From Myxococcota bacterium (GTDB taxonomy: Bacteria > Myxococcota_A > UBA9160 > SZUA-336): a DNA stretch of 64,000 nucleotides. Below the pieces are notes generated by a model, which worked only from the letters and a program-made list of their open reading frames with translations, was not told the origin of the DNA and made no database searches. The stretch is from contig CBDFGR010000002.1 of the NCBI GenBank assembly GCA_965247115.1, positions 1,504,001 through 1,568,000 on the forward strand, read 5' to 3'. The position numbers and the translations under genes are program-made. Below, piece by piece: positions 5,074 to 51,470 of the stretch (positions within the stretch are counted from its first letter, which is position 1; every line of letters begins with the position of its first letter).

Positions 5074-5078
5074 TGGGC

Positions 5079-5168
5079 CTTTTGGGACCCGGCCGCGGGC
5101 GTCCGCGGCCACCCACCTCCGCTCAGGCCAGGGGCCTTCGCTGCGCGCGCCGCTCTCGCAGCGCTTGC
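5079..5168 (+). repeat. ~90-bp REP-like element, copy 1
   Basis: CTTTTGGGACCCGGCCGCGG..CCGCGGCCACCCACCTCCGCTCAGGCC..GGCCTTCGCTGCGCGCGCCGC..GCGCTTGC. Confidence 0.9.
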
Positions 5169-5238
5169 GCGGGTGCTTGGTCGAGGACGGGGTCGGGAGA
5201 TGTCGACAGGGATGGAGGCGCGGCCTAGGCTCCGTCGC

Positions 5239-5601: not shown

Positions 5602-5621
5602 CAGTCGACCTCGGCACCGCA

Positions 5622-5711
5622 GCAAGCGCCGCGAACGCGGCGCGCGCAGCGAAGGCCCTCGGCCTGAGCGGAGGTGGGTGGCCGCGGACGCCCGCGGCCG
5701 GGTCCCACAAG
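5622..5711 (-). repeat. ~90-bp REP-like element, copy 2
   Basis: Reverse complement of the consensus; abuts korB stop codon. Confidence 0.9.
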
Positions 5712-6737
5712 TTACGAGACGGTCCAGCGGTCGCCGGCGAAGAGGAGGTCGGCGAGGCCTGCGTCGCCATGCGCGAGCTCGGCCTGGGACTGCTCCTGCG
5801 TTTCACCGTCGAAGGTTGGCTCCTCCACGGCCCGCAGCACGCCGATCGGCGTGGGGAAGTCGGGCGCCTCGCAGCGGGCCAGCAACATGGACAACGTCGG
5901 GTCCCGATTCGTCTCGTCGTGCAGGACCTCCACGCCGTCGTCCTTGGCACCGACGTGACCAGCGTAGAGGCGCAGGTAGGTCGGGTTTAGCTTGAGCATA
6001 CGATCGTGATCGTTGCCGTAGATGAGCGGCTGACCGTTCTCGAGCACGAGCAGGTGGTCGGACTTGATCTTGCGGTCCTTGACCTCATCGAACACACCGT
6101 CGTTATAGACCGGGCAGTTCTGGTAGATCTCGAGGAAGGCAGAGCCTTTGTGCTCGGCCATCCGGCGAATCATTTCCTGCAGGTGACGGGTCTCCGTGTC
6201 TACCGTCCGCGCGACGAAGGTCGCCTCGGCTCCCAGCGCCAGCGAGAGGGTGCGAAATGGCCGGGCCACCGATCCGTTTGGCGACGACTTCGTCTTCATG
6301 CCGATCTCGGAGGTGGGCGAGAACTGACCCTTGGTCAGCCCGTAGACCTTGTTGTTGAACAGCAGGATCTTCAGATCCACGTTGCGACGCAGCATGTGGA
6401 TCAGGTGGTTTCCACCGATAGACAGCCCATCACCGTCGCCGGTCACCACCCACACGGACAGGTCGGGTCGTGCGATCTTCAGTCCGGTCGCGATGGCCGG
6501 CGCGCGCCCGTGAATCGTGTGAAAACCGAACGTGTCCATGTAGTACGGAAAGCGCGAGCTGCAGCCGATCCCGGACACGAAGACGATGTTCTCGCGCGGG
6601 ACGCCCAGCTCGGGCATGACCTTCTGCATCTGGGCGAGGATGGCGTAGTCGCCACAGCCCGGGCACCAGCGCACCGCCTCGTCCGGAATGAAGTCCTTCT
6701 TGGTCAGCTTCGGGGCATCTGCGGTCTGAATGCTCAT
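5712..6737 (-). CDS. korB: 2-oxoacid:ferredoxin oxidoreductase beta subunit
   Basis: WCPGCGD, SGIGCSSR, HGRA, GDGD TPP motif, YGLTKGQFSPT; substrate specificity not determinable. Confidence 0.92.
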   Translation of the reverse strand: MSIQTADAPKLTKKDFIPDEAVRWCPGCGDYAILAQMQKVMPELGVPRENIVFVSGIGCSSRFPYYMDTFGFHTIHGRAPAIATGLKIARPDLSVWVVTGDGDGLSIGGNHLIHMLRRNVDLKILLFNNKVYGLTKGQFSPTSEIGMKTKSSPNGSVARPFRTLSLALGAEATFVARTVDTETRHLQEMIRRMAEHKGSAFLEIYQNCPVYNDGVFDEVKDRKIKSDHLLVLENGQPLIYGNDHDRMLKLNPTYLRLYAGHVGAKDDGVEVLHDETNRDPTLSMLLARCEAPDFPTPIGVLRAVEEPTFDGETQEQSQAELAHGDAGLADLLFAGDRWTVS

Positions 6738-9132: not shown

Positions 9133-9321
9133 GAAGGCCTCCCCGAGCCCCTCCGGGCAGTGCGAAAGAATCCGGCCAGTGGCTCCTGGCGTCGACCTGG
9201 AGCGTGTCCGCACCCGCTGGGAGGGGTCGTTTGCGCCTCCGCAGTCTACCCCATCCGCCAGAGCGCAACCCGAGATCGACCTAGACGCCGCGCCCGCTGG
9301 GTTGAGTACAGGGGCACTACT

Positions 9322-9411
9322 GCAAGCGCCGCGAAGACGGCGCGCGCAGCGAAGGCCGTAGGCCTGAGCGGAGGTGGGTGGCCGCGGCCGCCCGCGGCCG
9401 GGTCCCACAAG
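9322..9411 (-). repeat. ~90-bp REP-like element, copy 3
   Basis: Near-identical to copy 2; starts 11 nt after the adh stop codon. Confidence 0.9.
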
Positions 9412-9422
9412 ACCCGATCCCA

Positions 9423-41091: not shown

Positions 41092-41139
41092 AACCCCTAC
41101 CCGATCGGCAACCTGAACCCCTAGCCGATCGGCAACCTG
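41092..41139. repeat. 24-bp tandem direct repeat (2 copies) with palindromic CCGATCGG core
   Basis: AACCCCTACCCGATCGGCAACCTG / AACCCCTAGCCGATCGGCAACCTG. Confidence 0.8.
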
Positions 41140-41223
41140 CAAGCGCCGCAATTGCGGCGCGCGCAGCGAAGGCCTGAGCGAAGGTGGGTGGCCCGCGGAC
41201 GCCCGCGGGCCGGGTCCCACAGG
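41139..41223 (-). repeat. REP-like element, copy 4 (middle hairpin collapsed)
   Basis: Consensus ends retained; AGGCC-loop-GGCCT reduced to AGGCCT. Confidence 0.88.
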
Positions 41224-41226
41224 GAC

Positions 41227-42684: not shown

Positions 42685-42712
42685 CTATCGGCGAGGAACT
42701 CCGCGGGCTTGT
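42685..42712 (-). promoter_or_regulatory. sigma-28-like promoter candidate
   Basis: ACAAG-N15-GCCGATAG, immediately adjacent to the repeat pair. Confidence 0.45.
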
Positions 42713-42895
42713 CTTGTGGGACCCGGCCCGCGGGCGGCCGCGGGCCACCCACCTTCGCTCAGGCCAAAGGCCTTCGCTGCGCGCGCCGCTTCCGCGGCGC
42801 TTGCCTTGTGGGACCCGGCCCGCGGGCGGCCGCGGGCCACCCACCTTCGCTCAGGCCAAAGGCCCTCGCTGCGCGCGCCGCTTCCGCGGCGCTGC
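42713..42895 (+). repeat. REP-like element, copies 5 and 6 (tandem, ~92-bp unit)
   Basis: Units start at 42713 and 42805 and are nearly identical. Confidence 0.92.
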
Positions 42896-46438: not shown

Positions 46439-46451
46439 CCGAGCCAACCGG

Positions 46452-46544
46452 GCAAGCGCCGCGGAACGCGGCGCGCGCAGCGAAGGCCGAAGGCCTGAGC
46501 GAAGGTGGGTGGCCCGCGGACGCCCGCGGGTCGGGTCCCACAAG
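46452..46544 (-). repeat. REP-like element, copy 7
   Basis: Between convergent yraN and rplS; starts 6 nt after the rplS stop. Confidence 0.9.
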
Positions 46545-48816: not shown

Positions 48817-49134
48817 GTGCGTGGCCGGCACCCAGGACGGCGCAAGAGTGGGCCACCCGAAGCGGTGGCGACTCTGTTGCCCAGCGTGCTCGACGAAGTG
48901 GGACTCGGCGCGACGTCAGACGCGGTGCAGCTCGTCCACGTCTGGGACGAGACCCTCGGCGAGCCCTTTGCTGCGAACTGCCGCCCCGAGGGTGTCCGCA
49001 AGGGGGTGGTGGTGGCCCGAGTCCCCGACTCGGCCTGGATGCAGCGTATCCAGCTCGAGAAGCCACGCATCCTGAAGCGCCTGGCAGAAGCGCTCGCGGA
49101 GCCCCCGCACGACATCCGACTCCTCATCGGCTGA
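48817..49134 (+). CDS. DUF721/DciA family protein
   Basis: W...LGE..A..CRP, DSAWMQRIQLEK..IL.RL pattern. Confidence 0.75.
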   Translation: MRGRHPGRRKSGPPEAVATLLPSVLDEVGLGATSDAVQLVHVWDETLGEPFAANCRPEGVRKGVVVARVPDSAWMQRIQLEKPRILKRLAEALAEPPHDIRLLIG

Positions 49135-49723
49135 GCACGGCCGCCTCCAGGATCGCGTCGAAGCGGATCGCCCCCTCGCGCAGGAGACGCAGGTTCCCGT
49201 CGGGATCGAGTGCAACGACGCTCGACGGGGCAAGATTCCCGGCCGTCCCCGCGACGACTGGCAGCTCCTGGCCGAAGAGCTCGTGAACCTCGCAAGCGGT
49301 CCCACATGGCGCTTCCCCGCTGCGATTGCAGCTCGTCGCGGCGATCGGCCGCTCGTACAGCCGCGCCAGGCGAGCGGCGACCGGGTGCGAGGAGCACCGA
49401 AAGCCGACACCGAACTCTGTAGCCACCTGCGCGAACGCGACGTCGACCTGTTGCAGCACCAGGGTGAGGGGACCGGGCCAGAAGCGCTTGGTCAAAAGAA
49501 GCGCTGGTTCGGGAAGGCTCGGGAGCCAGGCCTCCAGCGCGCTCGCGTCCCGGACCAGCACCGAGAGCCCGCGCTCGGGCGCCCGCCCCTTGAGGACTTG
49601 GAGTGCCTCGAGCGCGCTCGGCTCGAAGACGTCGACACCGAGGCCAAAGACGGTCTCGGTGGGATAGGCCACGACCCGCCCAGTCCCGAGGAGGCGAACG
49701 GCCTCGTCCGCAGAAACGATCAA
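49124..49723 (-). CDS. tsaC: L-threonylcarbamoyladenylate synthase (YrdC/Sua5)
   Basis: VAYPTETVFGLG, LKGR, FWPGPLTLV, ATSCNRSG, LLREGAI; TTG overlaps purD stop. Confidence 0.9.
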   Translation of the reverse strand: MIVSADEAVRLLGTGRVVAYPTETVFGLGVDVFEPSALEALQVLKGRAPERGLSVLVRDASALEAWLPSLPEPALLLTKRFWPGPLTLVLQQVDVAFAQVATEFGVGFRCSSHPVAARLARLYERPIAATSCNRSGEAPCGTACEVHELFGQELPVVAGTAGNLAPSSVVALDPDGNLRLLREGAIRFDAILEAAVLSR

Positions 49724-51291
49724 CCCGCGTGGTCCCGGAGCGCCCGGAGCGCAATGTCGCTCCTGAGCTGGGCACCCTCGAACTGGATGCGACGCGCGGC
49801 GGCGTAGGCACGATCGCGGGCGGCGGCGATGCTGGCACCGCGGGCCGTGATGCCGAGCACGCGCCCACCTGCCGTCTCCCAGCGACCGCCAGAGCGGCGG
49901 GTGGCGGCGTGAAACACGAGAACCTCCGGCTCGCTCTCGAGCTCCTCGAGCCCCCTGATCTCTCGCCCCACCGGGTAGCTGCGCGGATAGCCCTCGCTCG
50001 CCAGCACGACGCACACGGCCGGATCCCCGAAGACGGGGCCTGCGGGACCCGGCGCGCGAGCGGTCGCGCGCCACCCACCTCCGCTCGGCTTCGCCTCGCT
50101 GCGCGCGCCGCTATCCGCGGCGCTTGCACCTGCGGGACCCGGCGCGCGAGCGGTCGCGCGCCACCCACCTCCGCTCGGCTTCGCCTCGCTGCGCGCGCCG
50201 CTATCCGCGGCGCTTGCACCTGCGGGACCCGGCGCGCGAGCGGTCGCGCGCCACCCACCTCCGCTCGGCTTCGCCTCGCTGCGCGCGCCGCTATCCGCGG
50301 CGCTTGCACCTGCGGGATCCGGCGCGCGAGCCGCTTGCAGAGGGAGCTGGCCCTGGGCCGCACCCACGAGCAGCGGGACGAGGTCGGACTCCATTCGGTA
50401 CAGCAGAGGCTGCGTCTCCGGGTCGCCGAAGCGGACGTTAAACTCCACCACAACGGGCTCGGCCTCGACGACCATCACGCCGACGTAGAGCACTCCCCGA
50501 TAGGGCGTGCCCTCCGCACGCAGGCCGTCGAGCGTGGGCTGAACGATCTTCTCGATGATTCGCTGCTCCACGTCGGGGCTCACAACCGGGGCCGGGGAGT
50601 AGGCGCCCATGCCTCCTGTGTTCTCGCCGCGGTCACCGTCTAGCGCGCGTTTGTGATCCTGCGCAGCGGCCAGGCACACGCTGCGCTCCCCGTCGGAGAT
50701 CGCGTAGTACGAGGCCTCCTCGCCAACGAGCCAGTCCTCGATCACGACCTCGGCACCGGAGTCGCCGAAGCGCCGCTCGCGCATGATCTCCGAGAGGGCA
50801 ACGCTCGCCTCATCCGGACCCGCGCACATGTACACGCCCTTGCCAGCCGCGAGCCCGTCCGCCTTCACGACAAGCGGCCCGCCGCGAGCGCGCACATACC
50901 GCTCCGCTTTGTCTGGGTCCGCGAAGCCCTGGTAGGCGGCAGTCGGGATGCCGTGGCGCTGCATGAAGGCCTTGGCGAAGCTCTTGCTGCCCTCAAGGCG
51001 AGCCGCGGCCGCGCCGGGCCCGAATACCGCGATCCCGGCAGCCTCGAGGTGATCCGCCAATCCCGCGACCAGGGGAACCTCGGGACCGACGACCACCAGC
51101 TGAACGTCCTCGCGTTTCACGAGCTCCACGACGGAGTCGGGGCTGGCCAGCCGCGCCTCCGCACAGCGGCCGTGTCGCCCGATGCCGTCGCTGCCCGGGG
51201 CGCAGAGCACCTCGTCGACCAGCGGGCTGCGGCCGATCGCCCAGACCAGCGCGTGCTCACGACCTCCCGAGCCCAGAACCAGGACGCGCAT
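49720..51291 (-). CDS. purD: phosphoribosylamine--glycine ligase with a 100-aa repeat-derived insertion
   Basis: GSGGREHAL, VVGPE, LEGSK, KADGLAAGKGV, QDHKR, NTGGMG, EFNVRFGDPE, VVLASEGYP, GGRV. Confidence 0.95.
   Translation of the reverse strand: MRVLVLGSGGREHALVWAIGRSPLVDEVLCAPGSDGIGRHGRCAEARLASPDSVVELVKREDVQLVVVGPEVPLVAGLADHLEAAGIAVFGPGAAAARLEGSKSFAKAFMQRHGIPTAAYQGFADPDKAERYVRARGGPLVVKADGLAAGKGVYMCAGPDEASVALSEIMRERRFGDSGAEVVIEDWLVGEEASYYAISDGERSVCLAAAQDHKRALDGDRGENTGGMGAYSPAPVVSPDVEQRIIEKIVQPTLDGLRAEGTPYRGVLYVGVMVVEAEPVVVEFNVRFGDPETQPLLYRMESDLVPLLVGAAQGQLPLQAARAPDPAGASAADSGARSEAKPSGGGWRATARAPGPAGASAADSGARSEAKPSGGGWRATARAPGPAGASAADSGARSEAKPSGGGWRATARAPGPAGPVFGDPAVCVVLASEGYPRSYPVGREIRGLEELESEPEVLVFHAATRRSGGRWETAGGRVLGITARGASIAAARDRAYAAARRIQFEGAQLRSDIALRALRDHAG
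50039..50338 (+). repeat. REP-like array inside purD: three identical 90-bp copies (8-10) plus a 30-bp internally deleted copy
   Basis: Units 50039-50128, 50129-50218, 50219-50308; mini-copy 50309-50338 keeps both termini. Confidence 0.95.
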
Positions 51292-51299
51292 CACTCCTC

Positions 51300-51419
51300 C
51301 TTGTGGGACCCGCGCGCGGGCGGCCCTCCCGCGGGTCAACGACCCGCGGGCCGCTGACGGCTTCCCACCTTCGCTCAGGCCTACGGCCTTCGCTGCGCGC
51401 GCCGCTATGCGGCGCTTGC
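51300..51419 (+). repeat. REP-like element, copy 11 (expanded first hairpin)
   Basis: Consensus ends plus an extra CCCGCGGGTC-AAC-GACCCGCGGG palindrome. Confidence 0.85.
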
Positions 51420-51470
51420 AGGCTGCCTATTCTAGCGCTCAGGCTTACGACCTTCGGCGCGTTTCTTGGG

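Follow-up and report, generated by a model that had tools for sequence, protein, structure and literature searches.

A likely selfish, REP-like repeat array of variable unit number in the linker of a single-copy PurD

Introduction

Repeats that are read through inside genes are an established phenomenon. REPs of the GTAG/CGTC type are abundant, GC-rich, single-hairpin repeats of 20-40 nt. Most of them lie between genes, with an enrichment where genes converge, and they often provide or adjoin a stop codon; a minority lies in frame within genes; DNA-repair genes are over-represented among the latter, and clusters of repeats encode tens of residues (PMC3733652). In the parts drawn on here, the catalogue of that paper includes dnaE2 rows of up to 81 aa together with purL, recD and recBCD genes, and its supplement 3 holds no purD row. 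Rickettsia palindromic elements (RPEs) are repeats of 100-150 nt with terminal inverted repeats and a conserved peptide, nearly half of them intragenic, that are read in frame through conserved enzymes and were tolerated in one enzyme assayed, Gmk (PMC10969869, PMC2229807). RPEs were the precedent named in a first-pass annotation of the locus studied here; the precedent is wider, since intragenic REPs reach 82 aa and occur in dnaE2 and recBCD genes (PMC3733652).

Two further systems are relevant. E. coli BIME-2 loci hold near-identical tandem copies whose number varies between strains; their units are intergenic REP/iREP pairs, for which circle or rolling amplification has been modelled (PMC3333891). 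TIRtrons, or TIRYTs (TnpA-Y1 subclass 2.1), consist of a Y1 gene with long inverted repeats of GGGG-A-C core and a C-terminal HTH-like extension, accompanied by a dispersed family of the TIR sequence, and in Pseudomonas putida a TIR is combined with stem-loops unrelated to it (PMC3733652, PMC6006769). Here, a repeat array found within purD of a Myxococcota bacterium, in a 64,000-nt stretch of DNA (the window), is compared with these systems.

Results

Organization of the purD array

The features of the window are collected in Table 1. The purD product comprises the N, A (ATP-grasp) and C domains of PurD in one open reading frame, over curated cut-offs, and its nearest named relatives come from Myxococcota/Deltaproteobacteria MAGs. 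The gene is single-copy, with one GARS_A and one GARS_C match above cut-off in the 98%-complete genome (G000), and no second intact purD was found there.

Table 1. Coordinates of the array, its neighbours and other repeat copies in the window
Feature	Position	Strand	Remark
purD (phosphoribosylamine-glycine ligase, 523 aa)	49720..51291	-	TIGR00877 492.9 bits, cut-off 288
Truncated copy, 31 nt (8 nt head + 23 nt tail)	50309..50339	-	first in gene direction
90-nt unit 1	50219..50308	-	first full unit in gene direction
90-nt unit 2, identical	50129..50218	-	
90-nt unit 3, identical	50039..50128	-	holds SD-like GGAGG and GTG in frame with tsaC/sua5 ORF
101 codons, L318-G418, replacing 5 sister-genome codons	50038..50340	-	predicted disordered loop
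tsaC/sua5 (Pfam Sua5_yciO_yrdC), downstream of purD	49124..49723	-	start inferred to overlap purD stop
Repeat copy directly upstream of purD	51300..51420	-	tail abuts ribosome-binding site
Intergenic copy	5078..5169	-	absent at G002 orthologous site
Intergenic copy	5620..5713	+	absent at G002 orthologous site
Intergenic copy	9318..9413	+	G002 keeps tail remnant only
Intergenic copy	41134..41224	+	
Intergenic tandem pair	42710..42893	-	period 92
Intergenic copy	46450..46542	+	

Several claims made from the sequence of the window alone were borne out. The gene carries three 90-bp copies that are 100% identical, with a period of 90; the array is free of stop codons in the purD frame; and the insert sits in the linker that precedes the C-terminal domain, between Pfam GARS_A (101-293) and GARS_C (425-515). 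The mini-copy described beside the units is also present, with a size of 31 nt instead of 30 bp, and the repeat-derived DNA in purD totals 301 nt instead of 300 bp. This truncated copy corresponds to a 59-nt internal deletion, sets the frame, and is retained in every allele seen in the species. Compared with the sister genome G002, 303 nt stand in place of 15 nt, and the protein measures 523 aa versus 427. Five codons gave way to the insert, which leaves a net gain of 96 residues, and the addition of "exactly 100 residues" put forward earlier does not hold. The inserted sequence is rich in Ala, Gly, Ser, Pro and Arg. Folded as DNA, the 300-nt array was no better than shuffles (z -0.93).

Regarding the surroundings of the gene, the repeat copy upstream of purD ends 8 nt before the start codon (51292-51420 examined), and G002 carries a different repeat copy at the same place. 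In addition, the SD-like GGAGG and the GTG in unit 3 open a frame of 316 codons (49124-50074, minus strand) that runs through the purD C domain into tsaC/sua5; this frame is probably due to chance in GC-rich DNA.

Alleles of the array

Both array junctions lay within contigs from all four runs searched, which belong to four studies, three of the runs carrying SNPs of their own; the assembly artefact that had been named as a possible refutation was thus not observed. In run X1, possibly the source, the contig with the unit junction had a depth of 32.2, about 3-fold that of the flanks (8.9 and 11.4), and two further assemblies encode 523-aa proteins with three units and different substitutions. 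An artefact of repeat expansion or mis-joining might be suspected from the perfect identity of the three units and from the fact that none of the contigs examined spans the whole array, but the junction contigs from independent studies, the depth of the unit contig and the two other three-unit assemblies make it extremely improbable.

The number of units differs between alleles, as had been anticipated. The protein collection contained three alleles of 523 aa, one of 463 aa and one of 433 aa, with three, one and zero units respectively, a series in which the conservation of frame is partly an ascertainment effect, protein databases showing in-frame alleles only. A 2-unit (493-aa) allele was absent from the three proteins listed out of 8000 candidates scored. 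Unit-bearing alleles were present in five of seven DNA runs. In a second set of three DNA runs, contigs of X7 and X8, from two studies, pass over exactly 270 nt while retaining the truncated copy, the joined form being the zero-unit one, and X6 contains both paths. The one RNA run of this set (X20) gave no records. Since independent assemblies and runs hold the 523-, 463- and 433-aa alleles, the array is polymorphic and not an artefact. A scan of JGI metagenomes with a junction pattern returned 17 matches, all of them chance matches outside purD. Three unrelated peptides of 38-40 aa (P0004, P0005, P0008) placed in the PurD cluster of P0001 represent a database clustering error.

The most diverged allele (98%) has the truncated copy only, with three substitutions, a hint that the state without full units may be the older one. 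A contraction through the 13-nt tract that the truncated copy shares with unit 3 would give the same zero-unit sequence, so that the zero-unit allele may be either the ancestor or a contraction.

PurD of relatives, predicted fold and selection

No insert was found in PurD homologues: the linkers of all 86 parsed were 37-42 long, and the 23 others of the 109 loci, which the linker pattern did not match, were read by eye and likewise had none. A long match in a Stenotrophomonas purD (L210) was considered and is not a linker insert. Excision of 50039-50338 from the present gene does yield a stop-free 423-aa protein, as previously stated, but its junction is not the clean, ancestral one, because its linker of 35 is shorter than that of every parsed homologue; the natural allele without full units has 433 aa.

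In the AlphaFold model, whose input of 66 aligned insert-free homologues favours a normal fold, 407 of 523 residues have a pLDDT of at least 90 and residues 332-412 fall below 50. The model superposes on Aquifex PurD 2yw2 with a TM of 0.96 and an rmsd of 1.6. The fold is thus predicted to be intact with a disordered surface loop, in line with the disordered linker that the first reading had proposed. Relative to G002, and including the time that preceded the insertion, dN/dS was 0.083 before the insert (codons 1-317) and 0.22 in the C domain (last 105 codons). Within the species, 11 of 13 classified SNPs were synonymous, once those inside the array, outside purD or only on short or highly divergent contigs had been dropped. 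Amino-acid changes numbered 14 on the insert-bearing branch versus 31 on the G002 branch.

These data bear on whether the long alleles cripple PurD, the strain drifting to purine auxotrophy or being purged and the zero-unit allele being the working form. That the 96-residue insert exceeds the 82 aa maximum found in the parts of PMC3733652 drawn on here, that zero-unit alleles are common in the second set of runs and that dN/dS reaches 0.22 in the C domain would agree with such a loss. Against it stand three 523-aa alleles without stop or frameshift, a branch without excess of amino-acid change, the mostly synonymous SNPs, the absence of a second purD and the unit-bearing alleles in most DNA runs, and we consider it quite unlikely. 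Selection on PurD looks unrelaxed from these indirect comparisons, and the enzyme likely tolerates the insert.

The repeat family

A profile search of G000 returned 195 copies at 168 loci, confirming that the purD units belong to a wider element, here a genome-wide family. The unit measures ~90 nt and forms three hairpins (30 aligned copies). Two-sided changes were present at 10 of 25 pairs, a level reached by none of 500 shuffles and far above that of slid controls, kinship among copies inflating such covariation scores. Conserved GA steps border the middle hairpin, whose loop is often of the GNA type; both traits are features of stable single-stranded DNA hairpins. The tail end of the unit is sharp and the head end frayed, and both carry CAAG in direct, not inverted, orientation. 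A search of Rfam gave two matches, both far under the gathering threshold.

According to a simple in-house gene caller, 158 of the 168 loci are intergenic. Spacers between convergent genes are enriched, with 59 of the 158 intergenic loci compared to 256 of all 1896 spacers. Copies often supply or abut stop codons, and among those beside a stop codon the tail faces the stop in 70 cases versus 17. Head-to-tail lengths were distributed over the three length classes as 45/44/38 (n=127), which gives no support to a length divisible by three as a family trait, contrary to what the first-pass annotation had supposed; the periods of other tandem arrays include 76, 92 and 93. In purD, the 90-nt period is the one that could persist in the reading frame. 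An intergenic array of six head-truncated units with a 76-nt period is located at G000:C3:1870739-1871231.

When 56 G000 loci were mapped to an 800-kb subset of G002, 25 had no HMM match there, and the reverse comparison gave 12 of 43; turnover of the family is fast. The covariance model matched 23 of 41 related genomes, and some members of the class, scattered within it, showed a strong amplification of the head pattern (for example 390 matches versus 16 controls in G010). To judge from these matches, the family has expanded patchily across this Myxococcota-type class. Within G000, housekeeping-rich regions hold up to 21 repeat copies per 200 kb, and stretches at C2:1.8-2.2 Mb, C3:2.4-2.64 Mb and C1:0.2-0.31 Mb are free of the repeat. 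A second repeat family, with the motif GGAGTCGGAGG and 30 matches, shares some spacers with the three-hairpin family in G000 and G002.

In-frame copies in other genes

A scan of the genome for further intragenic copies located five genes besides purD. The six of 168 loci at which copies are internal and in frame are purD, dnaE2 (in the PHP domain), imuB, an AddA-like helicase-nuclease gene, a CheW-like gene and the junction of lpxI with a Gfo/Idh/MocA oxidoreductase gene, so the earlier idea that the family colonizes proteins stands apart from the divisible length attached to it. Copies lie at predicted C-termini at four further loci. All six internal copies of G000 have the sense orientation but are read in different frames, and therefore encode no conserved peptide.

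The imuB, dnaE2 and AddA-like genes, each with an in-frame copy, lie within 13 kb (G000:C3:1783348-1796305; L040, L321). The dnaE2, cheW, imuB and lpxI insertions are common to G002, where they have different indels and the frame is kept, and the addA site of G002 holds a tail remnant only. In G001, the dnaE2, cheW and lpxI sites are empty, and the imuB paralogues carry two independent insertions, one of them antisense and in frame. Six insert variants, in frame, occur among ten members of the dnaE2 cluster. In G005, the PHP-domain loop of dnaE2 that takes up the repeat elsewhere carries an insert of comparable length that is not related to the repeat (L061), which suggests a permissive site.

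In G000, lpxI and the oxidoreductase gene form one open reading frame (G000:C2:1436772-1438709; L039), which contains the sole LpxI_C match of the genome, and the same is true of G002 (L100). In both genomes, the repeat lies exactly on the overlapping stop and start of the two genes. The unfused state, with LpxI ending where the next gene begins, was found in 10 of 10 same-family genomes in which the LpxI end was parsed; G001 is among the family members with separate genes. The repeat has replaced the overlapping stop and start and thereby fused the two genes. The fusion recurs in six database proteins of 632-653 aa, each with a linker length of its own. For G030, an open frame of 649 aa across the two genes was also considered; its translation shows a stop between them, and it is therefore not counted as fused. 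The best family of the oxidoreductase partner was UDP-GlcNAc 3-dehydrogenase, under the cut-off; this partner of LpxI may have a lipid A role (GnnA-like).

Such variation raises the question of a contingency locus, in which reversible changes of unit number would tune the activity, stability or partner binding of PurD. The 0-, 1- and 3-unit alleles, mixed within one run, and the in-frame variation of dnaE2 and of the lpxI fusion linker could be read in this way. However, amplification needs no benefit, because the same family forms intergenic tandem arrays of any period; in addition, neither peptide nor frame is conserved and the array is absent in all relatives parsed, which makes such tuning very unlikely. 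An action of the units at the RNA level, in the purD message, by pausing, stabilization or re-initiation at tsaC from the GGAGG/GTG, is also highly improbable. It would fit the covarying hairpins, the sense orientation of all six internal copies, which is kept even though open frames are more numerous on the opposite strand, and the continuation of the 316-aa frame into tsaC, but the stop-adjacent intergenic copies are mostly oppositely oriented, an antisense insertion is read in frame in the imuB of G001, and unit-free strains exist.

A candidate mobilizer

At 45 of the 168 loci, a TIR module lies at most 150 nt upstream on the same strand, versus 6 in other arrangements. As inverted 31-nt repeats, this module also flanks a Y1/HUH gene (L033:1010-2000; G000:C3:2.177 Mb), which scored 76.2 bits with NF047646, below the cut-off of 80, and is frameshifted in the assembly before its C-terminal HTH-like domain; homologues have a C-terminal HTH-like extension. 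The TIR core motif occurs in 87 copies genome-wide, and at this gene it reads GGGGACGG, with one mismatch to the published GGGGWSAS, a consensus that only some TIRs share in the parts of PMC3733652 drawn on here. Of 10 other homologue loci, one (L298, in G036) has this core at its flanks, and none of the 28 element loci L126-L153, mostly from other genera, contains it. Genes of the L033 type were present in 7 of 41 genomes and not found in the repeat-rich G002, G004 and G010, and PF01797 matched one of five element-bearing genomes tested.

The TIR module is absent at the purD copies. No three-hairpin copies flank a RAYT gene, the nearest lying at least 3.4 kb from each of the six G000 Y1 matches, and neither the repeat nor the TIR motif was found within 1.2 kb of the five other Y1 genes (L034-L038) or of the Y1 locus in the window. 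No transposase was recognizable by eye between closely spaced copies. Target-site duplications were not seen by eye in 37 filled/empty pairs, whose sites are noisy at ~87% identity, or at purD, cheW and lpxI. Insertion of the IS200/IS605 type into the lagging strand would predict an orientation bias between replichores; none was apparent, single copies being 74 plus and 73 minus and mixed in most 200-kb bins. IS91-type elements have a Y2 transposase beside their ends and tandem junctions with a single target tetranucleotide. A mobilizer of this type, suggested by the CAAG ends, was unsupported: one partial Y2 match was obtained (L154, G000:C2:1293173-1293439), with no repeat nearby, and the tandem junctions keep both the tail and the head CAAG/CAGG. 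Tentatively, the TIR-flanked RAYT-like gene at 2.177 Mb, or its kin, may be what mobilizes the repeat; outside this genus, the link to such a mobilizer is weak.

Discussion

We consider it likely that the linker of this single-copy PurD harbours a selfish, REP-like repeat array, with zero to three full units between strains, which is tolerated as a predicted disordered loop and is not an adaptation. After the split from G002, the family would have landed in the PurD loop and replaced five codons. At the purD junctions, a single full unit (92 nt for 15) would have broken the frame, and a first copy with 59 nt deleted (33 nt for 15) would for this reason have kept purD readable. From then on, a 90-nt period would be frame-neutral, and units may have been gained and lost by slippage, by unequal recombination or by integration at the shared 13-23-nt tail tract. 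Mobility could proceed by single-strand cut-and-rejoin of the HUH/Y1 type, as modelled for BIMEs.

How does the family compare with the described systems? It shares with REPs a high copy number, a mostly intergenic location near the 3' ends of genes, the enrichment between convergent genes, the GC-rich hairpins and the minority of in-frame copies encoding tens of residues, with DNA-repair genes making up three of the six here (dnaE2, imuB and addA-like). By contrast, its unit has ~90 nt and three hairpins, the 101 codons in purD exceed the 82 aa maximum, and a repeat-made fusion of two genes is not among the intragenic REPs in the parts of PMC3733652 drawn on here. The GTAG/CGTC end tag is absent from logos of 149 heads and 142 tails, the G that CGTC would require at tail position 14 being present in 15%; CTAC/GTAG occurs in the upstream module at 21 loci and not at the purD copies. 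Like RPEs, the units are palindromic repeats read in frame through conserved enzymes, but only 6 of 168 loci are intragenic, several frames are used, the unit has no terminal inverted repeat and head-to-tail arrays are formed. The lack of terminal inverted repeats on the unit and of a visible target-site duplication also sets it apart from MITEs.

With BIME-2 the array has in common near-identical tandem copies whose number varies between strains, and the partial duplications of head and tail in this family agree with the circle or rolling models; unlike the REP/iREP pairs, the units are direct, and one array lies in an essential-pathway gene (PMC3333891). As for TIRtrons, the resemblance covers the Y1 gene with its long inverted repeats and core, the HTH-like extension, the dispersed TIR sequence, here the upstream module only, and the composite with unrelated stem-loops, whereas the three-hairpin module does not flank the Y1 gene and occurs where no such gene was found (PMC3733652, PMC6006769). 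The purD array thus behaves like an intragenic REP or RPE insertion with BIME-like tandem amplification, and falls outside the strict definitions of GTAG/CGTC REPs, MITEs and RPEs.

A bolder proposal would make the composite of TIR module and three covarying hairpins a previously undescribed cargo of a TIR-associated Y1 nuclease, of a subclass without known REP-like substrate, which in this genus would insert linkers of variable length into DNA-repair and housekeeping enzymes, turn PurD into a contingency locus at the population level and have created a fixed fusion of LpxI with an oxidoreductase, in the lipid A pathway, by overwriting an overlapping stop and start. Taken as a whole, we find this proposal unlikely.

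The purD insert is unusually large and variable. Literature searches returned no description of this family, of an insertion in purD or of two genes fused by a repeat, although supplements and subscription papers may contain one, and a search on repeat-made gene fusions gave only reviews. In the parts of PMC2229807 drawn on here, tolerance of repeat-derived sequence was assayed for one Rickettsia enzyme. The PurD forms of 427, 433, 463 and 523 aa constitute a natural series with which the tolerance of a single-copy metabolic enzyme for repeat sequence may be followed. The lpxI fusion provides a sequence-level case of a small repeat making a two-domain protein, the unfused state of which is kept in a congener, and the TIR link gives a substrate that can be tested with TIRYT nucleases, which have been little studied.
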